This document shows positions 753 through 39,171 of a stretch of 64,000 nt of DNA, one piece after another. Each line of letters starts with the position of its first letter. Positions within the stretch are counted from its first letter, which is position 1. Location: positions 6,609 through 70,608 of the forward strand of contig JBCAXK010000003.1 in the NCBI GenBank assembly GCA_038534095.1, given 5' to 3'. Below the pieces are notes generated by a model, which saw nothing but the letters and a program-made list of their open reading frames with translations, was not told the DNA's origin and searched no databases. The stretch is from Chlamydiota bacterium (GTDB lineage Bacteria; Chlamydiota; Chlamydiia; Chlamydiales; SM23-39). The translations under genes and the position numbers were made by a program.

Positions 753-1565
753 TTAGAATGAAAAGGGTAAAAGGTAGGCAACGGTGAAAAAATTCACGCC
801 TTCGGGATAAGCTCCTGCCAAAAGCCTGCGAACATACTCGAAACGGAACGTACCCATTACCCCAATTTTGTAGCCATAACGGGCACCTACATCGAGAAAT
901 TTATACCGAATACGCCCGTAGCCAAAAAAATCATTTGGATCCACTTGGGTTCTTTTTCCATAACCATGTCCCCCTTCTAAAAAAAGAGCCCCGGTATGTT
1001 CGTCAAAGTACTTACCTTCAAAAGAGGCAGTTCCTGAGAACCAAGGAGAACCGCTCGTTGCAAATCCTAAAGAGCCGTATCCCCAAAATCGGTAACGAAA
1101 ATACCGATTGGGATCAAATTCTTTCCCAAAAGCGACATGCAATAAAAACTCCCCAGATCCGTGATAAGGGCAGCTCACATCTCGAAGCGAGCGCCTGGAG
1201 GTAAAGCGGGCAGAAACTCCCGTTGCTAAACTGAGAGGATCTCCAATCACATCGTCCAACCAAAGATAACGCCCTTGAAGGGCAAGAGAGCGGAAGCTAA
1301 AGGATTGACGCGAGGTATCTACGAAAGAAACTTCCCCATCTACGCTCCATTGGGGCGCTGGGGACGTTTCTATCGAAAAGTCAAAATCGTGATCCTTAGA
1401 ACCTGTGTTGGGGATCGTTTCACGGTTGATTTTGTGGTAATCGCTGTAGGTATAACTTGTGAGCAAATGAAACTCATAGACATCGCTAAACCAAGGTTGT
1501 TTTTCAAGACCTGAGGCAAAAGAGGGGAAAAGCCCACAAACCATGAGCGCGTAGAGCCATCTCAT
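753..1565 (-). CDS. putative outer-membrane beta-barrel protein (unknown family)
   Basis: From Met17 of the tracked ORF there is a signal-like N-terminus ([19 protein letters not shown]). The body is Gly/aromatic-rich with an alternating strand pattern and ends LLPFSF (terminal Phe). Its ATG overlaps the trxB stop (ATGA at 1562-1565). Confidence 0.6.
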
Positions 1566-2509
1566 AGGCCAAGTTCCGATAAGTAGCGCTCTGCATCTAA
1601 AGCAGCCATGCACCCCGATCCGGCGGCAGTGACCGCTTGGCGATAACGCTCATCTTGCACGTCACCTGCTGCAAAAACTCCTGGAATGCACGTTTTGCTG
1701 GTCCCTTTTTCGACTTCAATATATCCAGCAGGAGAAAGGGGGAGCTGCCCCTCTAAAAATTTTGTATTTGGCAAGTGGCCTATGGCAAAAAATACCCCGC
1801 CAGCTTCTTGTTCTTGAACGCTTTCTGTAACAAGATCTTTGATGCAAACTGCCCCAACAATCGCCTCCCCTTTTACTTCGTGCAAGACAGAATTCCAAAG
1901 AATCTCCACCTGAGGGTGCTGCAAAGCTCTTTCTGCCATAATTTTTGAAGCGCGCAAAGTATCCCGGCGGTGAACGATATACACTTTTTTTGCATACCTT
2001 GTCAAAAAAATCGCCTCTTCTACAGCGCTATCGCCCCCTCCAATGACATACACATCTTTATTGCGAAAAATCGGCGCTGCGCCATCACAAACTGCGCAAG
2101 AAGAGACCCCTTTCTGCCAAAATTCTCCGTCCCTTGTTCCAGGAATATCGAGCCTTTTTGCGCAAGCGCCTGTCGCAATGATGATTGCTTTTGCGCGCAC
2201 TTCGTCTTGTTTGGTTTTCAAGGTAAACGGTTTTTTTTGCAAATCCACGCTTACCACATCTTCTTGCCGAATTTCGGTTCCAAAACGGAGCGCTTGTTTT
2301 TTAAACGCTTCCATCATTTCTGGGCCTAAAATGCCCGAAGGAAACCCAGGATAATTTTCCACGTCGGTCGTTGTGGTCAGCTGCCCCCCTTCTGGTCCCG
2401 ATAAAAATCCAGAAAAAAGGAGCGGAGAGAGGTTGGCTCTTGCTGCGTAAATCGCTGCTGTGTACCCAGCAGGCCCCGACCCAATGATCACTAAATCTTT
2501 TTCTTTCAT
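1562..2509 (-). CDS. trxB: thioredoxin-disulfide reductase
   Basis: FAD motif [18 protein letters not shown], redox-active CAVCDG and NADPH motif [12 protein letters not shown]. Start taken at [10 protein letters not shown] (ATG at 2507-2509) rather than the upstream ORF start at 2578. Confidence 0.93.
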
Positions 2510-2636
2510 TACGATTTCCTTTTGAATTAAAAGTTGATTGTATCGAACTATCTGCAAAAATTCCACTAGAAAGGACAAAGAAAATCCCTTAAAATGTTTG
2601 CAAGACTTGTCGATAAAATTGGATCTTAAGAATCAT

Positions 2637-5465
2637 ATGCAAAAAGTGTTAAGAAATATTTTTGGCATTTACCCAGGGGAAGTGCTCTCTACGTTCCGAT
2701 TTGTAAAGTTTTCTGTATTCTGGGCCTTTTCCACCTCTTGTTTCGAAACGCTTGCAGATGGCCTTTTTCTTTGTCATGTAGGAGCCGACGGACTGCCTTT
2801 TGTCTATTTTGTGATTGCGCTGGCGTTGATCTTATTTTCTTCCATTATTTTGTACCTTCTTCGGCTGACGAGCCCTTACCGGATTCTTTGCAAAACGCTC
2901 ACTCTTTTCTTGATCGCTTCGGGCTTTCTTTTGCTCCTTTTTTCCTATCACGAGCTGACCAGCCTTCCAAACACATTTTGGTATTTGCTGAAAATCTATT
3001 CTAGAATTTTCTTTGCAGTTTTCTTGGCTCTTGGCTGGACATTCATCGATGAATACCACGACCTACAAGATGCAAAACGGGTCTACTCTTTGTATAGCGC
3101 AGCCTATTTCATGGGTCTTATCCTCTCAGGAACGTGCATTCATCTATTTTTAGATGTTTTAGGGCAAAGAACCTTTTTTACTTTTAGCGCTATTTCTGTT
3201 TTTTTTGCTTTAAAAGAGGCAAGACGGATCAACGCCAATGTCCCTGTTGTGGAAGACGACGGCATTGAAGGGGCTTTTTCTGGCGATCGGCACTCCCTGT
3301 CATCCATGGTACAAAAACTCCTTGGCTCCCCCTACACCATCGCTCTTTTAGCTCTTAGCCTTCTCCAGGCCTTTACCCTCACTACAACAGAATTTAACTA
3401 CATGGAAACCTTTGAAACGGCGTTTCAACAAGGGACTTTGCAAAAAACATTTACCGCAAGCAATCTGTCTGAATTTTTAGGGAAATGGCGGGCTTGGATC
3501 TCCTTTTCTAATGTGCTCATCGGAGGTTTTCTCTACAGACCCTTTGTAAAAAAATTTGGCCTCACGAACGTTGTGCTGATCCCTTCTCTTTTCTTCTTTT
3601 TTCTGTATCTCACCTGGACGTTTCACGATTCTTTACCGATCGCAATTTTGGGTTTGATCGCCGTTGATGGAATTTCTTTTACGATTGAAGACAACAATTT
3701 CAATCTACTAACAAAAGCGGTCCCTTCAAAACTGAAGTCTAAAGTGCGTATTGTCAATGACTCATTTTTTGAGCCCATTGGGATGATGATCTCTTCTGTG
3801 TTGCTTTTATCCTTGCCCTTGTACCAAAGCCGCGCTTTTGGTCTTGTTCTCTCAGTCTTTTTGATCATTGCTAGTTTTTTGGTGCGCGCTCTTTACTCCA
3901 AAGCGCTTTTTACCAACTTAAAAGAGCATACTCTCCGATTTAAAAAAACTCTTCTAGACTGGACTTCTTCTTGGACAAAACGGGAAAAGCGGCTAGCAAA
4001 AGAAGCGATTGTTCAAAAGCTCCAATCCCCAAAAGAGTCGGATAAACTTCTTGCCATTAGAACCATTTTAGCGCTCAAAAAAGAGGACCTAGTTGGCGTG
4101 ATTTCTGAGGAAATGAGCGGTTTTACTGATCTTGGAAAAACGACTCTATTGACTCTACTCGATAACTCTTTTTGCGCCTCTGATCAGAACATCTTAAGGA
4201 AAATTGCCTCTTGGGCAGACTGTTTATCAAGGGTAGAATTTCAACAACACGCCTATTTCTACCTAGCAAAACGTAAGCTTCTCTCTCCCGAAAAGGTGCT
4301 ACATCACCTCGATGCGCACCACCCGTTATGGATTCGCGCTTCTGCTATTTTGACCCTAAAGAAAACCCCTGATTGCGACTCCTTGGATAAACTCGCTCTT
4401 CATAGAACCATTGCCGATCGGGAACTGCACCTTCTTTTAAGCGACCCTGATCCTACAGAAGTGTTGATGGGACTTCGGTTGCTTAGGGAAACTCCTTCCG
4501 TAGAATCTGCGCAAAAAGCCTTGACCCTTTTTTCACACGCCAAACTCGAAATACGTAGAGAAGCGGCGCACGTGATGGCAAAGGTTAGCGATCCTTCGAT
4601 GTACTTCTTGGCTCCAAAAATTCTTGCGCTTCTGCAAGAGGAGACCGATTCTAAAACCCGTCTTTACTGCTTGGAATCCTTAGGCAAGTTTTCCGATTCA
4701 TCGATCGTAAAAGAGATTCTCTTAAAAACAGTCCACTTTCGTCCCGTTGAAAAAAGGCTTACAGAAAAAATCATTGCCAATATGGGACTAAAAAATGTGC
4801 CTTTGATTCTCTCAGTACTCAAAGATGTGCAAGCACATGACAAACCAAGAATTTTAGCGAGCAAAATTTTAGCCAGGCTTTCCCCAGCGCAGCTTCACGC
4901 CCACTTAGACGCCATTTTGCATGTGGAAAAAGAACGGGCCTACTTTTATTTTTACTATGGGCATACTGTACAAACATCCTACCCCGACATCCCCTTAAAA
5001 GACCTCACTCAAACCCTCCTGACCAGCTTTCAATCGGCGATTGACTTCATTATCCATCTTTTGGCGGCTGTAGGTCAGGTGGAAGATCCCGAGCTACTTG
5101 TCTTATCTCTACACAGCAAAAATGCAAAAGTCCATAGTAGCGCGATCGAAGCGCTAGAAACTACTTGCTCTCCGAGCGTATTTTCCTGGATTCTTCCTCT
5201 GATTGAGGATTTACCTTTTGAAGAAAAATTGAACGCTTACAAAAAGTATGCGACAAAAGATCGGAAGCTCACTCTTCCCCATATTTTGCAAAAATTACAA
5301 ACCTCGCCTTCTACATTTGACAGGATTGTTGCTGCAAAATTGAAAGCTCTTGTGAAAACTCCTGGATGGGAAAAAGAGCTTTTACAAGAACTAAAAACCT
5401 GTGATGAAAATTTCCACCACTTTGCGTACGAGTTATTAGAAAATGAAACAGCTCACTCTTATTGA
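2637..5465 (+). CDS. polytopic carrier-like membrane protein (TLC/NTT- or MFS-like) fused to a C-terminal HEAT-repeat domain
   Basis: About 450 aa with many hydrophobic helices, followed by about 500 aa of HEAT/PBS-lyase-type repeats (EIRREAAHVMAKVSDPS, TRLYCLESLGKFSDSS, KVHSSAIEALETTCSPS). Start taken at the ATG at 2637. The carrier family is assigned from memory only. Confidence 0.65.
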   Translation: MQKVLRNIFGIYPGEVLSTFRFVKFSVFWAFSTSCFETLADGLFLCHVGADGLPFVYFVIALALILFSSIILYLLRLTSPYRILCKTLTLFLIASGFLLLLFSYHELTSLPNTFWYLLKIYSRIFFAVFLALGWTFIDEYHDLQDAKRVYSLYSAAYFMGLILSGTCIHLFLDVLGQRTFFTFSAISVFFALKEARRINANVPVVEDDGIEGAFSGDRHSLSSMVQKLLGSPYTIALLALSLLQAFTLTTTEFNYMETFETAFQQGTLQKTFTASNLSEFLGKWRAWISFSNVLIGGFLYRPFVKKFGLTNVVLIPSLFFFFLYLTWTFHDSLPIAILGLIAVDGISFTIEDNNFNLLTKAVPSKLKSKVRIVNDSFFEPIGMMISSVLLLSLPLYQSRAFGLVLSVFLIIASFLVRALYSKALFTNLKEHTLRFKKTLLDWTSSWTKREKRLAKEAIVQKLQSPKESDKLLAIRTILALKKEDLVGVISEEMSGFTDLGKTTLLTLLDNSFCASDQNILRKIASWADCLSRVEFQQHAYFYLAKRKLLSPEKVLHHLDAHHPLWIRASAILTLKKTPDCDSLDKLALHRTIADRELHLLLSDPDPTEVLMGLRLLRETPSVESAQKALTLFSHAKLEIRREAAHVMAKVSDPSMYFLAPKILALLQEETDSKTRLYCLESLGKFSDSSIVKEILLKTVHFRPVEKRLTEKIIANMGLKNVPLILSVLKDVQAHDKPRILASKILARLSPAQLHAHLDAILHVEKERAYFYFYYGHTVQTSYPDIPLKDLTQTLLTSFQSAIDFIIHLLAAVGQVEDPELLVLSLHSKNAKVHSSAIEALETTCSPSVFSWILPLIEDLPFEEKLNAYKKYATKDRKLTLPHILQKLQTSPSTFDRIVAAKLKALVKTPGWEKELLQELKTCDENFHHFAYELLENETAHSY

Positions 5466-5859
5466 AAAAGCATTCTTTTTAAAAAAAGTAAAAATTTTTG
5501 AAGATCTCGATCTCGATTTTCTTCTATCGATTTCCGATAAAGTGCATCAAGACGAGTACGACAAAAATGAGCCCGTTTTTTTAGAAAAACAAATTGGCCA
5601 CTCTCTCTATCTGATTGCAAAAGGATCTGTGGAGCTCATCAAGGGCGCCGTAAGGAGGCGCCACTTAAAGGTGGGGGATTTTTTTGGCGATGAGTCTCTC
5701 TTTAACGAACGTCCCCGCGCTTACGCAGCTGCGTGTACAACAGATACTCTTCTTTTGATTCTATCTCGATCGGATCTAATGAGCATCATTTCTGAGTGTC
5801 CCAATGTAGCGGTACAACTTTTAAAACACTATACAGAGATTTTCCATACAGCAAGATGA
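5443..5859 (+). CDS. cyclic-nucleotide-binding (CAP effector-type) domain protein
   Basis: 138 aa with a CAP_ED-like core (LYLIAKGSVELIKG...VGDFFGDESLFNERPRAYAAACTTDTLLLILSRSDL). Overlaps the upstream gene by 23 nt in a different frame. Confidence 0.8.
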   Translation: MKQLTLIEKAFFLKKVKIFEDLDLDFLLSISDKVHQDEYDKNEPVFLEKQIGHSLYLIAKGSVELIKGAVRRRHLKVGDFFGDESLFNERPRAYAAACTTDTLLLILSRSDLMSIISECPNVAVQLLKHYTEIFHTAR

Positions 5860-7085
5860 ATATTCGAACCCGTTTTTTCCTCTTTTTGATCCCCGCTACA
5901 TTCTTTAGCCATATTTTTATCGCTACTTGCATGTACCAAACGTGGAGCCTTGAAGTCCAAAAGCAGTTTGAAAAACGTTTCAGCGCCGCTTTAGAGGAAA
6001 AAGATGCCCTGTCAACAAGCGAACTTGCGCAGGCTTTAGATAAAGACTTTTTCCTAAAAACGCTCCGGGTGATCCCCAATATCCCTCCTGCTTTCCATCG
6101 GATTCACTTCAAAACTTCTTACTACCATGAAACGGTATTTGCGTACCTACCTCCCACAAAGATGCGAAGCGCTATTCAGGTCGATTTAGCAGCAAAAGAA
6201 CTCTTTTCCGAACTAAAATCTGGGATTTTTTGGACAGCGACTGCCGCTCTTATGAGCATGGGAATCAGTCTTTGCGGCCTGTTTCTTGCTACAAGAAAAA
6301 TTACCGCTCCGATAGAAGATCTTAAGAAAGCAGCTCTTGCGATCGCAGCTGGTGACTACGGACAAAACATCTCTGTCAAAGGCCCCAAAGAAATTCAAGA
6401 ACTATCAAACACGCTAAGCGTAATGAGTGAATGTTTGTATGAAAATAGTCAGCGCCATAAAGAATCCTTATTGGAAAAGCCGCTTGCTAGTTACGAAGAA
6501 ACCTCAGCACGGCACCTCCAAAAAATGATGTTTTCCATGAGAGCCAAAGACTCTAATTCGGACAAAATTTCGATCAAAACGTTAGCGCTCCACTCTCTTC
6601 AGCCCAAAGGTCTTCTTTTGGAGCTATGTGACTCGCCTGGGGCCCCCTTACAGCTTTCCCTGTTTGAAGCTAACCAAGCAGGGCTAGCTGGGATGTACGA
6701 TCTGTTGACCAATCATAAAACCAATCAAGAGAGCTTTCCCCAAATCAGCGCCTCGCTAGATGCGCGCTCCGAACTATTTTCCTACCAAACAAAACAATTT
6801 CCTACCCCTTTCCTTTGGTCTTTTCGGGAGAAAACCTTCTTCCCTTTAAAAGAAGACTGTACCAAAGTGGATTGCGGAGACTGTATTTTTCTTTATACGC
6901 CTTCTCTTTTCTCTCTGTACAAAACAGAAAAAGAAATGCAAAAACATCTTGGTAAGGTCCTGAAATTTTTTGCAGAAGAAGGGCTCGACCCCCTTTCAAA
7001 AATGCTGTACAAAGAAATCCATTTTTTCGCAAAAAAACAGGATTTTGATGAAGATATTCACCTTCTTTTCTTTCAAATTTTGTAA
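5856..7085 (+). CDS. membrane sensor with HAMP domain and a degenerate SpoIIE/PP2C-like (RsbU-like) C-terminal domain
   Basis: TM1 (FFLFLIPATFFSHIFIATCMY), a ~110-aa loop and TM2 (IFWTATAALMSMGISLCGLFLA). HAMP follows (ITAPIEDLKKAALAIAAGDYGQNISVKGPKEIQELSNTLSVM). The C-terminal region parallels SpoIIE blocks (ARHLQKMMF, LLLELCDSPGAP, CGDCIFLYTPSL, DEDIHLLFFQIL). Its ATG overlaps the upstream stop (ATGA at 5856-5859). Confidence 0.6.
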   Translation: MNIRTRFFLFLIPATFFSHIFIATCMYQTWSLEVQKQFEKRFSAALEEKDALSTSELAQALDKDFFLKTLRVIPNIPPAFHRIHFKTSYYHETVFAYLPPTKMRSAIQVDLAAKELFSELKSGIFWTATAALMSMGISLCGLFLATRKITAPIEDLKKAALAIAAGDYGQNISVKGPKEIQELSNTLSVMSECLYENSQRHKESLLEKPLASYEETSARHLQKMMFSMRAKDSNSDKISIKTLALHSLQPKGLLLELCDSPGAPLQLSLFEANQAGLAGMYDLLTNHKTNQESFPQISASLDARSELFSYQTKQFPTPFLWSFREKTFFPLKEDCTKVDCGDCIFLYTPSLFSLYKTEKEMQKHLGKVLKFFAEEGLDPLSKMLYKEIHFFAKKQDFDEDIHLLFFQIL

Positions 7086-7166
7086 ATTTTTTTTGTGATA
7101 AAAATTTTTACGTAGTATAACTTCTTCACGTTTTCACCACCTTGCAATAGAATTTTAGGAGAATTT

Positions 7167-7910
7167 ATGGACCTTGGCCACGAGCAATTCACGACCATCC
7201 AAGAACAGCACCGATCTTATGAAATAGAGCCGCATCTGCTGAGCTCCCGAGTGGCAGTAAAATATGGTCGGATTATTCCTTTAGATATCCACCATCGGAG
7301 ATATGCCAAGGAGATTGTGAAGATTTTGGGTGGCGGTTTTGAGTGGGAAGATCTAGGAAGTATTTTTCTACAATGTTACACATTTTTAGAAGAATTTCCA
7401 TTACTGTCGAATGAAATGCGCTCCGACGCAGCGATTGCCATTTTTCAGTATGTGATCGATTATACAGATTCAGGCTACAGGCCCTATGAGATGAACAAGG
7501 TGCTGCTGAAGAATATGCTCACCCCATTTATTCGATGGCTTTCTCCAGACAATTTGAATCGCCTTGTTCCTGAAAGCACCATCGAAGGAGCTCCTACAGA
7601 CGCAGATATTGTGGCTTATGAGTCCCAGGTTCTGCGTCCTTTCAAAGGGAAGTTTGACTGGTTTAGCCTATCGACAGTTGTCTATTACACAACAAATTAC
7701 GTATCGCAATTTCGCTCGCTTAGCTATGAGGATAAGTGCCGATTATGCTACCGAATTGTCGCCTTTGCTATCGAAAAAATGGACGCTCCCTACGTTTTAG
7801 AGCACTTTGCGGATGATATTTTCAATCGATTTTCACAGCCGATCATGCGTGAGTTGATTAGAAAAATGCATAAAGAGAGCTCCCGTCATCCGCGCAATTT
7901 CCCTAATTAG
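7167..7910 (+). CDS. hypothetical protein
   Basis: 247-aa ORF in an otherwise empty interval, with a purine-rich stretch (TTTTAGGAGAATTT) just upstream of the ATG. No family recognised. Confidence 0.55.
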   Translation: MDLGHEQFTTIQEQHRSYEIEPHLLSSRVAVKYGRIIPLDIHHRRYAKEIVKILGGGFEWEDLGSIFLQCYTFLEEFPLLSNEMRSDAAIAIFQYVIDYTDSGYRPYEMNKVLLKNMLTPFIRWLSPDNLNRLVPESTIEGAPTDADIVAYESQVLRPFKGKFDWFSLSTVVYYTTNYVSQFRSLSYEDKCRLCYRIVAFAIEKMDAPYVLEHFADDIFNRFSQPIMRELIRKMHKESSRHPRNFPN

Positions 7911-8026
7911 GGCTCTTGTAAAAGGGAATCGATGTGGGTTAGATCTTCTCCTGACGTGAAGAGTGGATTGCAAATCGAGAGGTAAGAAAGGCTAGCTTAC
8001 ATGCCAGCCTTTCTTCTAAGAGCTTT

Positions 8027-8263
8027 CTAACCTGCTTTCTTTTGTTTGATGTACTCAATTACGTCACCTACTGTTTTGAGCTTTTCAGAATCTTCTTCCG
8101 AAATAGCAAACCCAAAGTGTTGTTCAAATGTCATGATGAGCTCTGTAGAATCCAAAGAGTCGGCGTTCAAATCCTCGACAAAAGATTTTTCTGGAGTCAC
8201 CTCTTCTTCCTTGACGCCCAGCTGTTCTACAATAATTTCTACGACTTCTTTTTCAATAGACAT
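8027..8263 (-). CDS. acpP: acyl carrier protein
   Basis: 78 aa with the phosphopantetheine-attachment motif [21 protein letters not shown]. Last gene of the fabH-fabD-fabG-acpP cluster. Confidence 0.93.
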
Positions 8264-9083: not shown

Positions 9084-9960
9084 GGACCTCGCCGATTTGT
9101 GATTCTTCTTGGACAGAGTAGGTGCGCAGCACGCCCATTTTTCCGTTCATAGCACTAAGCTTTTTACCAGGTCCCACCTCAATCCAGGTATGGATCTCCT
9201 TTTTGAGGGATTGGATGATCTTTGTCCAACGGACAGGAGAGGTCACCTGATCAATCAGGTACTCTTTGATCAATGAAGCTGAGGAAACCTCTTGCCCAGG
9301 AACGTTCATAAAGAGGCGACAAGCAGGTTTTTGAAAAGACAATCCGTCAATGTAAGCAATCAGCCCCTCCCGTGCCTTCTCCATAAAAGGAGAGTGAAAG
9401 GCGCCTTCCACAGATAAAGGGATGGTTTTTGCCCCTTGAGCCGATAGAAGTGCTTGCGCATCTTTCAAGCCAGAAAAGCTTCCTGCAAGAACCGTTTGTA
9501 GCGGAGTATTGTAATTGGCAATCGAAACATCTTCACAAGGGGCAATGATTCTTGCAATTTCTTCTGGGTCCATACCGATGACAGCGCTCATCGATCCAGG
9601 GTTTTCTTCGCACGCTGCCTCCATCAAAGAGGCTCTTTGTTTAATAAGCTGAAAGGTCTCTTCAAAAGAGAGACACGAAGCTGCGTAAAGAGCGGTATAC
9701 TCTCCCAAGCTCAGCCCAGCTACAACCGATGGGAAGCAGGTTTCTTTCAAACGGTCGACAAGAGAGGCGCTTACAAGAAAAATAGCGAGCTGACTCCAAC
9801 GGGTTTTTTTTAACACATCTTCTGGACCTTCGGCTAGAAGGGTAAAAAACTGCTCACCAAGCTCTTTTTTTACGTAAGCAGATTTCTCGTCGTCGCATAG
9901 TCCCCGATCCATACCAACGCTTTGAGCCCCTTGTCCTGGAAAAATCATCGCAATGTTCAT
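9061..9960 (-). CDS. fabD: malonyl-CoA:ACP transacylase
   Basis: FPGQGAQSVGM plus active-site GLSLGEYTAL. Start taken at MNIAMIFPGQG (ATG at 9958-9960), which overlaps the fabH stop as ATGA. Confidence 0.9.
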   Translation of the reverse strand: MNIAMIFPGQGAQSVGMDRGLCDDEKSAYVKKELGEQFFTLLAEGPEDVLKKTRWSQLAIFLVSASLVDRLKETCFPSVVAGLSLGEYTALYAASCLSFEETFQLIKQRASLMEAACEENPGSMSAVIGMDPEEIARIIAPCEDVSIANYNTPLQTVLAGSFSGLKDAQALLSAQGAKTIPLSVEGAFHSPFMEKAREGLIAYIDGLSFQKPACRLFMNVPGQEVSSASLIKEYLIDQVTSPVRWTKIIQSLKKEIHTWIEVGPGKKLSAMNGKMGVLRTYSVQEESQIGEVLEKVYVQ

Positions 9961-35565: not shown

Positions 35566-38500
35566 ATGTCCGCTCTTCAATGTGTTAAACAAACAATGGA
35601 AATCGATTATTCTGCCATGTCGGCAGAAGAAAAGGCAGATAGTAAACTAATCAGCAGAATCAAAAGGTCTGTTAAGGCTATGAATCTGGTCGGCTCAGAA
35701 GGTAAGAAGTCGAAGCTCGCTAAAAGAATGATATCCCTTTGTAACGAACATGAACACAACATGGCCTCTTTTAAAGCAGCGATTGAGCACTTACCTTGGC
35801 CAGGTGCGCCAGACCAAAGATCAACGCTATTCCTCCTGAAAGAAGCCTTTATTATCGAGAAACACCCGAATAGAATGGACTTTTTAAAGAAATATGGAGG
35901 GATTCCTTGGTGTCAAAAAAACGGGCCTGATTTCGAAGCTTACGATTATCTTGTAAACATACTAGTCTCTAATGATAATAATGATGATTATTACGAATTA
36001 CGTTCAGTGCTCTCTTCCTTTCTCTCTCATTCAATCGAGAAAGAGATTTCCAAAGAAATACTTCAACGCCGTTTTATGAAGAAAATCTTAAAAGCTTACG
36101 AGGAACCAGATCGGTCTATTGATAACAAACAGGATTGGATTGGAGAAAATACATACACCCCAGATGAATGGATGGTTGCGACAGCTATTTTCCACGAAAA
36201 TATTTATCTTGCAAAAAAGTGGATAAAGGCTTGTACCTCTCGTGGTGATTCCTATGCTATCGCCCACTTTGCAGTACAAAAAGCCTTTGAAAATGACCGA
36301 TGGGATTTAGCTAACGAATTCTTTGAGGAAAACATACCAAAACAAGCTTCTAACAGAGAACAATTCCTAAAGACTGGCTTTGAAAAAGCTTTCCTCAATC
36401 ATTGTTCGGATCAAAGTCTTATCATCAACTTTTATTTTCAAAAACTGGAGCCATCGTCCTGGATGAAAAAATCTCAATGGGATGCTAGTAAATGGGTCGT
36501 AGACAAGCTCACCGATACTCACTACCCTATCGCTGATCGGACTGAACTCCTAATGAGCTTTTTACAAGGTCGTGAAAGAATGGTAGAGAACAAATCATCA
36601 CCAATGAACAGTTTGCTAACAGTTACAGTGAACAACATTTTGAAAACCCAAGATTGCAAAGAAATTTTTCGCAGATTATTGGATCGCTACATGCCTACAT
36701 CCCTTGCTCTCAAAAAGCGAGTTGGTCCGGAGTTTATCGACTATTTTATTGACATTTCTTACGGAATAGCAACTACAAAAAACGTAGACAATATCCTATT
36801 TTATCTAAATGGGAATGAAGATCGACTATTTGGAAAGGAAACTTTGTTGAAGGGGGTAATAAGACGACTTACAGAAAATAACAAAAAAGCCTTTGCAAAA
36901 AGATTATTCAATAAATACAAATCCCGACCTTATCCCAATATAAAAGAAGGTTCGTACGCAGAGTACTCTCTTCTTTTTATCCACCATATTTGCCAATATA
37001 AAAAAGATTGGATCGAGTTTCTCTTTGGGAACGAAGATGAAAAGTTTGGCAGAGATATTTCTTTACTAGTTGAATCAATAAAGCGTGCTGTTAATTTTGG
37101 CGCCATAAATTTTCTCATCAAACTATTGAAAATGTACGGAAATAATGTTTTTATCCCAAAAGACTCCGATACTGAGTCTTCTTATGGAAAATTGATTGTG
37201 AAGCAGCATTTATCGAAAGGAAAAGTTCTTAATTTGCTCAAAATTTTAGAAGGAATTGAACAAGTTCATCGGGAAACATTATTACAAATCATTATCGATG
37301 AAGCCTTTTTTGAAAAAGCGGAAGATCTGATCGAGGGTCTATGGAAAAAGTATCGTCACTTAAACATACCTTCAGAAAGACTTTTATTAAACATACCTCC
37401 AAAAAGACTTGTAAAAGCATCTTATGGATCTTACATGGTCTTGAAAGGTTTTATCTGCGAAAATTATCGATTTTTAACTACATGTATAGACAGCTGTACC
37501 GAACATGTTTGGTTTCAGGGCAAGAAAATTACGGTAGCTGAGCTTATTGCTAAATCATCGATAGAAAATCATTGTAAAAATTTTTTCCAAAAGTGCTTGA
37601 TAGAATATGATAAAAAACGTTCTAAATTCAGTAAGAAACACCGAGAATACCGATTAGTGTGTAGAATTTTCCATCGCGCGTTAATGGAAAAACATGAGGA
37701 ATTTCTTAAGCTCTTTAAAACGACCTTGCTGTCGATAAAGGAAGACCTGGGCTCACTTTTCTTATATACCTTACAGGCAGTTATAACACTTTTGGCAAAA
37801 GCATCTCCTACAGGGAAGATCGATAAAGCAGCACAAGAGATCTTAGAGCTGACGATTTCCCACGCAGCGACTGGAAGTGATCATCTATTTAAAGAGATTT
37901 GCTCGAAATTTTCGAAAGAAAAATATAGTGATACATTGCAAATAAAACATGTATTACTTGATTACTGCGTGGAACAAAACGCTAATCAAAGGGCAAAAAT
38001 GCTGATACAAAAACATAGGGACGACCGCTCACAAGTAATCCAAGACGAGGGGGGCGCCTTCTCATGGAATTTTGTCTCTTTAGCGATTGTTTTTGCGATA
38101 AAACATCGCAATGAAGATGTGCTCAATGATTGCCTTACCAAATATAAAGATCATCTTTGGGAAAAAGTTGGAGGTACTAGTTCTATGGGCGCCTTTGCAA
38201 TTGAAACAGCAATACAATATCACTACAACACTTTTGTGATGAAAAAATGCAATAAGAATTTAAACAATTCACAAACTAGAGAAAAGACGCTCAATTGCGT
38301 ATGGAGACTAGCAAATAAATATTCCAATCGAGCGCTCATGCTCGAGCTATTCAACCGTTATCGAAAGTACATTCCGGAAGAAAGGCTTTATCAGCTAATT
38401 AGTTCTTACATGCGCTCTGCCAGTAACATGCTTTTAATGTCTAAAGATATTCTTGAGTATAACCGAGAAATCCGAGAACTTCGGACATCTATTTTCAACC

Positions 38501-39171
38501 TTTCTGGTAAGAAAGATGAATTTTTGAATACAGAAATCCTTTATTTGGATATACGCAAATGGCTTAAAGAACATCGCTTTTCAGAGAATGACATACATCT
38601 CATTCAGTACATAGTGAGCGCATTAGAAACAATTAACCTTCCTTTTTTGGATTTATATACTTTTCCTTGCAGCCTAGAAAACAATTTTTCTCCAATGCCT
38701 ATGAAAAATTTTTTTCAGAGCATAATAACTGATTATTATCGGAATAATATAACAGCTAAATTATCGAACATCATGACAGAGCAGGAAATCGTGAGAGATG
38801 AATCTAGTTTGCGCGCAATGGAGCTAGATCCTGCGCGTCGAGATTGTCCCGCTATTCGCAAATTTCGCGATGATCTAATATGCTGCCAGCGCTATCTATT
38901 GGCTAGAAAGAGCCAAAGCACGCAGCCATCAGTCTTAGATTGGATTTGTGCGCAAAACCCAGACAAACCAAAAAACTGTCAGACTCTAGAGCCTATTAGG
39001 CAAGCCAATGAGATGAACGTGGAACAAGAAGGTAAATCGCGTATACAAGACAGACGAATAGATCGTGGTGATGAAAAAGTATCTTCGGAAGAAAAATCTC
39101 AGCAATGGCATAAAAGATCGGAACAAAAGGCTTCTAGTAATACACACTCTTCCTCAAAAAGGGGTTCGTAA
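35566..39171 (+). CDS. large hypothetical protein (1201 aa), predicted all-helical with a recurring motif; candidate secreted effector
   Basis: Uninterrupted 3.6-kb ORF with Lys/Asn/Ile/Phe/Tyr-rich, A/T-biased composition. The motif h-x-x-h-h-x-[KR]-Y recurs, for example FLKKYGG (106), ILKAYEE (174), LLDRYMP (371), LFNKYKS (447), LLKMYGN (520), LWKKYRH (592), CLIEYDK (677), CLTKYKD (856) and LFNRYRK (928). The C-terminal tail is charged and Ser-rich. Confidence 0.8.
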   Translation: MSALQCVKQTMEIDYSAMSAEEKADSKLISRIKRSVKAMNLVGSEGKKSKLAKRMISLCNEHEHNMASFKAAIEHLPWPGAPDQRSTLFLLKEAFIIEKHPNRMDFLKKYGGIPWCQKNGPDFEAYDYLVNILVSNDNNDDYYELRSVLSSFLSHSIEKEISKEILQRRFMKKILKAYEEPDRSIDNKQDWIGENTYTPDEWMVATAIFHENIYLAKKWIKACTSRGDSYAIAHFAVQKAFENDRWDLANEFFEENIPKQASNREQFLKTGFEKAFLNHCSDQSLIINFYFQKLEPSSWMKKSQWDASKWVVDKLTDTHYPIADRTELLMSFLQGRERMVENKSSPMNSLLTVTVNNILKTQDCKEIFRRLLDRYMPTSLALKKRVGPEFIDYFIDISYGIATTKNVDNILFYLNGNEDRLFGKETLLKGVIRRLTENNKKAFAKRLFNKYKSRPYPNIKEGSYAEYSLLFIHHICQYKKDWIEFLFGNEDEKFGRDISLLVESIKRAVNFGAINFLIKLLKMYGNNVFIPKDSDTESSYGKLIVKQHLSKGKVLNLLKILEGIEQVHRETLLQIIIDEAFFEKAEDLIEGLWKKYRHLNIPSERLLLNIPPKRLVKASYGSYMVLKGFICENYRFLTTCIDSCTEHVWFQGKKITVAELIAKSSIENHCKNFFQKCLIEYDKKRSKFSKKHREYRLVCRIFHRALMEKHEEFLKLFKTTLLSIKEDLGSLFLYTLQAVITLLAKASPTGKIDKAAQEILELTISHAATGSDHLFKEICSKFSKEKYSDTLQIKHVLLDYCVEQNANQRAKMLIQKHRDDRSQVIQDEGGAFSWNFVSLAIVFAIKHRNEDVLNDCLTKYKDHLWEKVGGTSSMGAFAIETAIQYHYNTFVMKKCNKNLNNSQTREKTLNCVWRLANKYSNRALMLELFNRYRKYIPEERLYQLISSYMRSASNMLLMSKDILEYNREIRELRTSIFNLSGKKDEFLNTEILYLDIRKWLKEHRFSENDIHLIQYIVSALETINLPFLDLYTFPCSLENNFSPMPMKNFFQSIITDYYRNNITAKLSNIMTEQEIVRDESSLRAMELDPARRDCPAIRKFRDDLICCQRYLLARKSQSTQPSVLDWICAQNPDKPKNCQTLEPIRQANEMNVEQEGKSRIQDRRIDRGDEKVSSEEKSQQWHKRSEQKASSNTHSSSKRGS

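Follow-up and report, generated by a model that had tools for sequence, protein, structure and literature searches.

The closest described relatives of the locus analysed here are the NTT-HEAT proteins, which Major, Embley, and Williams reported in 2017 as NTT-HEAT proteins, as NTT-HEAT proteins accompanied by a cNBD gene, and as NTT-HEAT-cNBD fusions; the family forms a separate long branch that is sister to the characterised NTTs, and these authors already speculated on cAMP-regulated uptake (PMC5381601). Our locus comes from an uncultured Chlamydiota bacterium (GCA_038534095.1, contig JBCAXK010000003.1), and all coordinates refer to the window, that is, the whole 64,000-nt stretch of DNA that was analysed. 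Three plus-strand genes, g1 (2637-5465), g2 (5443-5859), and g3 (5856-7085), make up the module. As in the published system, an NTT-like domain is followed by HEAT_2 repeats in g1 and a cNBD gene lies immediately downstream; however, the published description has no third partner (PMC5381601), whereas here a HAMP/PP2C-fold protein is near-constant in environmental Chlamydiota, and fused NTT-HEAT-cNBD forms elsewhere are accompanied by HAMP proteins related to g3. The first-pass annotation, made from the sequence alone, knew of no functional description of such a system; the fusion and its pairing with a cNBD gene have been in print since 2017, and it is the g3 partner that is new.

Gene organization, the carrier-like protein, and its cNMP-binding neighbour

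Reading of the sequence confirmed the three same-strand ORFs and both overlaps reported at first pass. The g2 ATG lies at 5443 and the g1 TGA at 5463-5465, which gives a 23-nt overlap (5443-5465, plus strand), and the g2 stop and g3 start codons share an ATGA (5856-5859, plus strand). In relatives, the g1/g2 junction is usually a 4-nt overlap and sometimes one of 14, 17, or 23 nt; the g2/g3 junction is a 4-nt overlap in most loci, as it is here. The trio is one conserved and, to judge from these junctions, translationally coupled operon. A weak and uncertain sigma-70-like promoter match lies upstream of g1 (2567-2595, plus strand; 9/12 matches in a consensus scan), and such sites are no more numerous in this region than expected from shuffled sequence. 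Downstream, g4 (7167-7910, plus strand) encodes a 247-aa hypothetical protein whose membership in the operon is doubtful: it had no match in Pfam or NCBIfam, a homologue (48% identity) was present only in L044/L062, and in other genomes its position is occupied by unrelated hypothetical genes of ~270 aa or by an SSF symporter gene.

Read from its ATG, g1 encodes an NTT-HEAT protein of 942 aa. A MAG-derived Chlamydiota protein at NCBI has the identical sequence (100%), and TLC, HEAT_2, and MFS_1 matches occur in homologues of ~930 aa. An upstream TTG start at 2538 lacks support, since the homologues begin at the ATG-equivalent 'M..FRK.FGIYPGEG'. Residues 1 to 444 (2637-3968, plus strand) constitute an NTT/TLC-like MFS carrier domain; in the AF2 model, 12 long helices lie within residues 16 to 444, and a solenoid follows them. 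The top three Foldseek PDB matches were NTT1 of C. pneumoniae (9j3n) and NTT1 of Arabidopsis (9j3m and 9j3l), with E values of 5e-7 to 3.5e-6 and TM values of 0.65 to 0.69, and the next MFS matches were ~100-fold weaker. Canonical NTT/TLC carriers, including the chlamydial Npt1/Npt2, are therefore the best structural match for these 12 helices; however, identity to them is only 15-18%, and g1 both misses the TLC model and adds a HEAT tail. A TLC or MFS match, proposed as a check at first pass, was not obtained in Pfam for g1's own sequence but was obtained among 22 members of its family (TLC in 13/22 and MFS_1 in 17/22). Because g1 misses Pfam TLC and its family is only a long-branch sister of the characterised NTTs, a nucleotide substrate is a guess.

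The remainder of g1 (residues 448 to 941; 3978-5462, plus strand) is a HEAT/ARM-type alpha-solenoid of ~490 aa, with a Pfam HEAT_2 match at residues 599 to 682 (37 bits against a cut-off of 27.7), profile matches to alphaRep/HEAT PDB chains, and about 30 short helices in the AF2 model. This match and the NTT folds bear out the carrier-HEAT fusion recognised in the first reading. Proteins of MFS topology have both their N and C termini in the cytoplasm, so the solenoid is probably cytoplasmic. The adjoining g2 product (138 aa; 5443-5859, plus strand) is a lone cyclic-nucleotide-binding domain, as first described, with a Pfam cNMP_binding match of 51.9 bits against a cut-off of 27.5 (E 7.5e-14). 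The Gly, the acidic residue, and the Arg of the phosphate-binding cassette 'FFGDE(S/A)LFNE.PR' are retained in 48 orthologues, in which 'IISECP' is invariant; the predicted ligand-binding core is conserved.

A HAMP protein with a PP2C-like fold

The 409-aa g3 product (5856-7085, plus strand) is arranged, according to its AF2 model and the family alignment, as TM1, a small periplasmic alpha/beta domain, TM2, HAMP, and a PP2C-fold domain. Its ATG start fits the family N terminus 'MKIRTRLLLFLLP', and the TM1 motif found there is nearly invariant; a GTG start at 5796 does not fit it. At E<=1e-30, the representative library contains 124 clusters of this family. The HAMP domain (residues 145 to 192; 6288-6431, plus strand) scored 36.4 bits in Pfam against a cut-off of 25 (E 6.5e-9), the g3 profile matches the HAMP regions of Tsr and NarQ in the PDB, and the two-TM HAMP architecture read at first pass is upheld by this score and by the model. 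Short family members keep both TM helices, HAMP, and the C-terminal domain and have no periplasmic domain.

In the AF2 model of g3 (pLDDT 84), residues ~210 to 409 (6483-7082, plus strand) adopt an RsbU/SpoIIE-type PP2C fold, the metal site of which appears to be incomplete. Foldseek matches, at E values of 1e-7 to 1e-5 and TM values of ~0.5-0.57, were to the PP2C domain of P. aeruginosa RssB, the RsbU domain of Rv1364c, SpoIIE, RsbX, and SiaA; the top entries were 3f7a, 3f79, 3es2, and 6k4e, the last of which is SiaA. Pfam and profile searches with the sequence gave no SpoIIE/PP2C match, and the SpoIIE/PP2C domain of the first-pass annotation thus stands on the predicted fold but not on the Pfam SpoIIE search. 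Catalytic positions were mapped by fold, by motif reading, and by a low-confidence hhalign register against PP2C (4% probability), which aligns L253 with Asp1, E271 with Asp2, and a variable residue with Asp3; D400 was placed at Asp4 by eye. The Asp1 (GGD motif) position is Leu throughout the family, and the Asp3 (TDG motif) column holds Q, P, E, K, or D, so that at least two of the four metal-binding aspartates appear to have been lost, in agreement with the "pseudo" status first assigned to the domain. E271 and D342 are invariant and D400 is nearly invariant, all at or near canonical metal-ligand positions, and these conserved acidic residues could form a noncanonical site.

Together with the PP2C fold, these acidic residues would suit a phosphatase that is active through an unusual metal site and, controlled by HAMP, removes phosphate from g1, g2, or some other protein, and P. 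aeruginosa SiaA, which has the same HAMP-then-PP2C layout (6k4e; partial NCBIfam match), is an active enzyme. We nevertheless regard such activity as distinctly improbable, given the family-wide leucine in place of the GGD aspartate, the variable column at the TDG aspartate, the missing Pfam SpoIIE match, and the absence of a kinase gene within the operon. SiaA is catalytically active on SiaC, whereas g3 appears to have no complete metal site; RssB carries a receiver domain where g3 has TM-HAMP; and neither protein, unlike g3, is associated with a transporter or with a cNBD.

The RsbU/SpoIIE-type fold also lends itself to another, transceptor reading, in which the carrier domain mainly senses nucleotide or energy status and the pseudo-PP2C domain of g3 sequesters or releases an RsbV- or RsbW-type partner-switching protein, thereby feeding into sigma-66 availability and development. 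Chlamydia offers a precedent: CT589 of C. trachomatis is a membrane pseudo-PP2C, an inactive RsbU paralogue without metal ligands, for which the same output has been proposed through binding to RsbU or RsbV1/2 (PMC4552016; PMC5177608), and ATP sensing and partner switching are central to current models of RB-to-EB differentiation (PMC13463777). Like RsbU/CT589, g3 is a membrane protein with a periplasmic portion and, behind a HAMP linker, a cytoplasmic domain of the PP2C type, and it shares the missing metal-coordinating residues with CT589, as judged from the published description of that protein. RssB, moreover, is among the top fold matches of g3, and the pseudo-PP2C-derived domain of enterobacterial RssB, the E. 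coli adaptor, is a noncatalytic binding module. However, g3 is much smaller than RsbU/CT589, its gene lies with those of a carrier and a cNBD instead of beside rsbU, and sequence models fail to detect its PP2C-like domain, whereas InterPro PP2C models do pick up CT589 (PMC4552016); g3 and CT589 probably belong to different families. Furthermore, the highly conserved transmembrane domain of g1 is what would be expected of a working carrier, and no STAS or anti-sigma gene occurs in the listed flanks of the wider non-chlamydial clusters described below. With no RsbU metal site in g3 and no RsbV or RsbW gene in the operon or seen in the window, the "partner-switching-type element" of the earlier description is not retained, and we consider a partner-switching output rather unlikely.

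Linkage of the trio within and beyond Chlamydiota

The operon is conserved in searches from either end. From g1, g2 followed directly in 47/47 loci with room, and g3 followed g2 in 39 of 45 chlamydial species-representative genomes; from g3, g1 and g2 lay directly upstream in all 35 informative metagenome loci (those with enough upstream sequence), where g1 identity went down to 31-36%. The distant g3 members P0273 and P0172 have the same g1-g2-g3 arrangement. Since this arrangement recurs across species-level genomes at g1 identities as low as 31-66%, it is more than chance. The co-occurrence and the carrier-family assignment on which the first-pass interpretation depended were therefore both found, as neighbouring genes in related genomes and as NTT folds. 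The third gene is absent from 6/45 genomes, including the closest relative (L004), which suggests that g1 and g2 can work without it.

Some of this conservation of gene order could be passive, because the whole block of acpS, omp, trxB, the trio, acpP-fabGDH, recR, and bamA is syntenic across chlamydial genomes, and the three genes might be mere neighbours that share an inherited block and no function. This explanation is strongly disfavoured: no g3 homologue stood apart from g1-g2 in any of the 35 metagenome loci, the overlapping stop and start codons are conserved, natural fusions join the domains of g1 and g2 (PMC5381601), and the linkage of g1-family, sensor-HAMP, and small cNBD genes is seen again in bacteria of 35-59% GC, where the genomic contexts are unrelated.

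In this larger version outside Chlamydiota, 8/8 distant relatives of the sensor-HAMP part of g3 adjoin g1-family genes of the fused NTT-HEAT-cNBD type, and the usual cluster consists of NTT-HEAT-cNBD, two HAMP proteins, and a small cNBD. The module is thus not peculiar to host-dependent chlamydiae, the setting given at first pass. Natural fusions were confirmed in L112, L113, L117, L118, and L119; the g1 profile matched the fused proteins at E values of 1e-88 to 1e-117, and the cNBD of L113 gave a weaker match to the g2 profile (domain E 2e-5). Such fusions are sequence-level evidence for cooperation between HEAT and cNBD domains. Sequence comparison established no link between the C-terminal domain of g3 and those of the HAMP proteins outside Chlamydiota. 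A HAMP plus Guanylate_cyc gene adjoins 2/8 of these clusters within the fetched flank, which is consistent with a cyclic-nucleotide signal; neither the window nor any of the chlamydial flanks examined yielded a cyclase.

It can also be envisioned that the carrier moves the cyclic nucleotide itself, with import of host cAMP/cGMP in chlamydiae, export in free-living bacteria that have a neighbouring cyclase, and cNBDs as substrate-feedback sensors. The cNBDs are indeed fused to the carrier or encoded beside it (PMC5381601; L112 and L119 among the confirmed cases), and g1 has the fold of nucleotide transporters. The distribution of cyclase genes, present beside two non-chlamydial clusters and not found in chlamydial flanks, points the same way; however, the adjoining clusters are only two of eight, and the chlamydial search covered only flanks and the window. 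The case is purely inferential, we know of no NTT that carries cNMPs, and we give cyclic nucleotide transport only a slim chance.

A regulated carrier complex as the proposed mode of action

We propose, as the likeliest reading and at what we would call an even chance, that the products of the trio associate physically and act together in a single membrane complex, in which a carrier or transceptor would be controlled by a cyclic nucleotide and by a noncatalytic HAMP transducer. The ligand-regulated transport or transceptor signalling suggested at first pass would be a reasonable idea. In this model, built on domain content and predicted folds, g1 would be an NTT-type carrier with its cytoplasmic HEAT solenoid as a docking platform, g2 would be a diffusible cyclic-nucleotide receptor, and g3 would be a two-TM HAMP transducer that acts by binding and not by dephosphorylation, as the loss of the binuclear metal site from its PP2C-fold domain suggests. 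Whether g2 is occupied by cyclic nucleotide, and which state the HAMP domain of g3 is in, would change what binds to the HEAT platform or which partners bind each other, and the changed binding would in turn gate or tune the carrier. Because many g3 orthologues have no periplasmic domain, the HAMP state would be set chiefly through the membrane helices, and perhaps by their contact with the carrier.

The proposed arrangement is reminiscent of BceAB-BceS, DctA-DcuS, and UhpC-UhpB, in which transporter and membrane sensor are encoded together and the sensor, with little or no extracytoplasmic domain, reads the state of the transporter. The short g3 forms, in which only a TM hairpin and HAMP precede the C-terminal domain, fit this cosensing logic. 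Unlike in those pairs, the output domain of g3 has a pseudo-phosphatase fold and is no histidine kinase, and a cyclic-nucleotide receptor is added; the analogy may extend to the working mode and implies no family membership.

In conclusion, the first two genes of this locus are a known pair, and what turns out to be new is that g3 is a near-obligate third partner of that pair. The chlamydial trio is a streamlined form of a wider bacterial cluster.

Conservation of the three-gene locus in Chlamydiota

In this analysis, we have followed three same-strand genes with overlapping ends: g1, encoding a carrier-HEAT protein (2637-5465, +; 942 aa), g2, encoding a lone cyclic nucleotide-binding domain (cNBD; 5443-5859, +; 138 aa), and g3, encoding a HAMP protein with a PP2C-like fold (5856-7085, +; 409 aa). 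The coordinates proposed in the first-pass annotation were confirmed, with overlaps of 23 nt between g1 and g2 and of ATGA between g2 and g3; for both g1 and g3, the N terminus set by the ATG start fits those of the homologues, and an NCBI MAG protein matches g1 at 100% identity. The locus, from an uncultured Chlamydiota genome, lies among typical chlamydial genes, namely, acpS, an outer-membrane protein gene, and trxB on the 5' side and acpP, fabG, fabD, fabH, recR, bamA, ompH, and lpxD on the 3' side. In a promoter and terminator scan, site counts deviated by no more than about 1.5-2 SD from those expected after shuffling, and no strong internal terminator was seen.

The linkage of the three genes was examined in both directions. 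When species-representative genomes were scanned with an alignment of g1, 56 loci were obtained, all from environmental chlamydial MAGs; g2 directly followed g1 in 47/47 loci with room for it, and g3 followed g2 in 39 of 45 chlamydial genomes, the other 6, which include the closest relative (L004), having different genes at this position. Conversely, 50 loci emerged when metagenomes were scanned with an alignment of g3, and all 35 that had enough upstream sequence carried g1 and g2 directly upstream of g3, even where g1 identity fell to 31-36%. The three genes are neighbors in related genomes. At 50% identity, g3 proteins fall into about 124 clusters; distant members of the family show the same gene arrangement, a 4-nt overlap is the rule at both junctions, and among the loci examined g3 was never seen apart from the g1-g2 pair.

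Several features of these loci were recorded in passing. In L004, whose g1 is 64% identical to that of the window, a 528-aa opposite-strand gene lies right after g2 (6549-8135, -). In two loci (L053, 10001-11218; L055, 10001-11239), the g1 homologue ends after ~400 aa and consists of the carrier part only, g2 and g3 are missing, and in L055 fabG is close behind; these shortened genes may be pseudogenes or reversions to an unfused carrier. Downstream of g3 in the window is g4 (7167-7910, +), a 247-aa hypothetical gene with no Pfam or NCBIfam match that is conserved only in L044 and L062 (48% identity). Elsewhere in chlamydiae, the g4 position holds between one and three hypothetical genes of ~270 aa that are paralogous to one another (for example, L001, 11368-13917) or, in L060, an SSF symporter gene (9556-11025). 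On the upstream side, a 286-aa protein without family matches, probably an outer-membrane beta-barrel, is encoded at 753-1613 (-) and overlaps the 3' end of trxB (1562-2578, -) by about 50 nt; almost every related locus keeps this pair upstream of its g1. Two large ORFs of the window, encoding 1,201 aa (35566-39171, +) and 549 aa (26564-28213, -), showed no obvious family resemblance by eye.

Predicted architecture of the three proteins

NTT carriers are the basis of energy parasitism in chlamydiae. Pfam analysis of g1 itself detected HEAT_2 alone, with no TLC (PF03219) match at an E value of ≤0.1; among 22 close family members (46-64% identity), HEAT_2 was matched by 22, MFS_1 by 17, and TLC by 13 (best E value, 1.4e-8), and the g1 profile gave an E value of 0.053 against the PDB sequence of NTT1. 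The AF2 model of g1 (pLDDT 79.5) contains 12 long helices between residues 16 and 444, followed by an alpha-solenoid that extends to the C terminus. In a Foldseek search of the PDB with this model, the three top-ranked structures were those of Chlamydia pneumoniae NTT1 (9j3n) and Arabidopsis NTT1 (9j3m and 9j3l), with E values of 5e-7 to 3.5e-6 and TM scores of 0.65-0.69; other MFS transporters scored ~100-fold worse. Both parts of the fusion that had been read from the sequence, a polytopic carrier domain and HEAT-type repeats, are thus borne out, the former as a 12-helix MFS-type fold closest to the solved NTTs and the latter by the Pfam match and the modeled solenoid. With an NTT-like domain, C-terminal HEAT repeats (PF13646/PF02985), and a cNBD gene that overlaps its end directly downstream, g1 is, from its domain content and fold match, a member of the NTT-HEAT family (PMC5381601). 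In that family, a cNBD gene often lies within a few nucleotides after the NTT-HEAT gene, NTT-HEAT-cNBD fusions exist, and C. trachomatis has one uncharacterized copy, which was marked as an experimental priority (PMC5381601).

The lone cNBD assigned to g2 was likewise recovered: g2 matches PF00027 at 51.9 bits (gathering cutoff, 27.5) and has no DNA-binding or other domain in Pfam. Its phosphate-binding cassette (FFGDE..FNE.PR) retains the Gly, the acidic residue, and the Arg in 48 orthologues, in all of which the C-terminal IISECP is also invariant; the Ser/Thr position after the cassette Arg varies, with Ala in the window protein. Ligand binding by g2 is plausible. The pairing of g1 with g2, together with the idea of cAMP-regulated uptake, is already published, having been described in 2017 (PMC5381601). 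A rival explanation is that the cyclic nucleotide is itself the substrate transported by this NTT-like carrier.

For g3, the only Pfam match was HAMP (PF00672; 36.4 bits against a cutoff of 25), at residues 145-192 and directly after a helix at residues 114-164, as had been anticipated. The AF2 model (pLDDT 84; 34 homologues in the alignment) has the order TM1, an alpha/beta periplasmic domain of ~60 residues, TM2 running into HAMP, and a 200-residue alpha/beta domain. Foldseek matched this C-terminal domain to the PP2C domain of Pseudomonas aeruginosa RssB, Rv1364c, SpoIIE, RsbX, and SiaA, with a probability of 1.0 and E values of 1e-7 to 1e-5. The proposal of a SpoIIE/PP2C-like domain of the RsbU type therefore holds at the level of fold; however, it has no counterpart in sequence profiles, since Pfam, NCBIfam, and PDB profile searches gave no match of this domain to SpoIIE/PP2C (PF07228), and these searches returned just the HAMP region or chance matches to BAFF/TNF ligands.

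The catalytic residues were mapped with hhalign against an RsbU-like PP2C sequence; because it retrieves the same PP2C structures in a PDB search, it was accepted as being of that type. In the resulting register, which has a probability of 4% and agrees with the motifs, the aspartate of GGD (Asp1) is Leu in g3, that of DxxGxG (Asp2) is an invariant Glu (E271), and that of TDG (Asp3) falls in a variable column, so that in this low-probability register the four-aspartate metal site (GGD, DxxGxG, TDG, DD) is incomplete. Because of the changes at Asp1, Asp2, and Asp3, we read g3 as a probable pseudo-phosphatase, in agreement with the "pseudo" label given to it initially. The last-strand aspartate (Asp4, D400), read by eye from the alignment, is mostly kept in the family; a competing view is that g3 keeps residual phosphatase activity.

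Many g3 orthologues are shorter, at 310-340 aa, and retain both TM helices, HAMP, and the C-terminal domain with essentially no periplasmic domain; examples are found at L011 (12086-13051), L015 (13218-14198), and L052 (9700-10638) and in proteins P0144, P0147, and P0163. The conserved core of g3 is therefore intramembrane and cytoplasmic, and these sensor-less forms suggest that the HAMP input arises within the membrane. BceS and DcuS are sensors that read a partner transporter, and they serve here only as an analogy for such an input.

Alternatively, the g3 output might feed into Rsb partner switching, the role that has been put forward for CT589, the inactive RsbU paralogue of C. trachomatis (PMC4552016; PMC5177608). 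The rsbV/rsbW-type partner genes are dispersed in Chlamydia (PMC4552016); there are no genes for RsbV (STAS) or RsbW (kinase/anti-sigma) in the operon, and a search of the window revealed neither an RsbU paralogue nor a further copy of g3. Unlike CT589, g3 has no InterPro PP2C signal, and the two proteins also differ in size and in their gene neighbors; these indirect signs argue against orthology.

A larger cluster outside Chlamydiota

Searching a library of 1.8 billion proteins with the g3 profile gave next-best matches beyond the g3 family in which the similarity to g3 is confined to the TM, sensor, and HAMP part; their periplasmic domains differ, many being beta-propeller-like, and their C-terminal ~200 aa are unassigned. 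All eight of the non-chlamydial matches that were looked up adjoin a g1-family gene. This gene is complete in six of the eight (1,027-1,064 aa), and five of those six carry a cNBD of their own. The usual order is NTT-HEAT-cNBD, a first HAMP protein (HAMP-A, 500-720 aa), a small g2-like cNBD (127-135 aa), and a second HAMP protein (HAMP-B, 430-467 aa), with 4-nt overlaps at most junctions. Four-gene clusters were located at L112 (3847-10912), L113 (7001-13297), L114 (702-7510), L116 (3-6118), L118 (2802-9912), and L119 (2858-9901). The non-chlamydial loci range from 35% to 59% GC, and their flanking genes are unrelated to one another.

Two of these clusters adjoin a gene for a HAMP protein with a class III cyclase domain (Guanylate_cyc; L118, 10143-11957, +; L119, 360-1886, -), the N-terminal sensor-HAMP part of which matches the g3 profile with E values of 1e-15 to 1e-19. 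Neither the window nor any of the chlamydial flanks examined contained a cyclase gene. On two unrelated contigs, an Orn/DAP/Arg decarboxylase gene adjoins the NTT-HEAT-cNBD gene (L112, 2407-3603; L113, 13354-14493), a possible sign of a connection with polyamine or amino acid metabolism.

Judged by gene position, g2 and g3 of chlamydiae resemble the small cNBD and HAMP-B. As origins of g2, the small cNBD of the cluster and a split-off fused cNBD were compared, and the comparison favors neither. No sequence link to g3 or PP2C was found for the C-terminal domain of either HAMP-A or HAMP-B, and an hhalign bridge from that of HAMP-B to the g3 C-terminal domain or the RsbU-like PP2C gave a probability of <1%; by eye, HAMP-B carries PP2C-like motifs.

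A proposed regulated carrier and its significance

The bidirectional conservation of gene order, the retained translational coupling, and the natural fusions of g1 to a cNBD lead us to argue that the products of the trio would act together. In the most economical model, a carrier or transceptor would present a cytoplasmic HEAT platform that binds the cyclic nucleotide receptor (g2) and also the noncatalytic PP2C-fold domain of the HAMP transducer (g3). A broader reading, speculative and on balance doubtful, is that the trio would be the smallest, chlamydial version of a widespread system not yet described, in which cyclic nucleotide and dedicated HAMP transducers with dead-phosphatase outputs control a nucleotide-type HEAT carrier. 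In free-living bacteria, the system would comprise a pair of HAMP proteins, one more small cNBD, and in some cases a HAMP-cyclase of its own, and in chlamydiae host-derived nucleotide or cAMP status would be relayed to carrier activity or developmental control.

What appears to be new is that the third gene is a nearly obligate companion of the pair and that other bacteria carry a larger HAMP/cNBD/cyclase cluster; our literature searches found no description of either and nothing relevant on CT234/CT235 or on a C. trachomatis cNBD with HEAT repeats, and a 2026 review of chlamydial signaling names only Npt1 and Npt2.

In conclusion, the NTT-HEAT branch, so far without a functional handle, is now seen with two fixed regulatory partners, and the same logic is found in culturable-type, free-living bacteria, with a neighboring cyclase in two clusters. 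Together, these observations yield a testable hypothesis, that of a second-messenger-gated carrier or transceptor, for which free-living bacteria are easier experimental systems than chlamydiae. As a predicted pseudo-PP2C, g3 would add a second membrane protein of this kind to chlamydial signaling, beside CT589.
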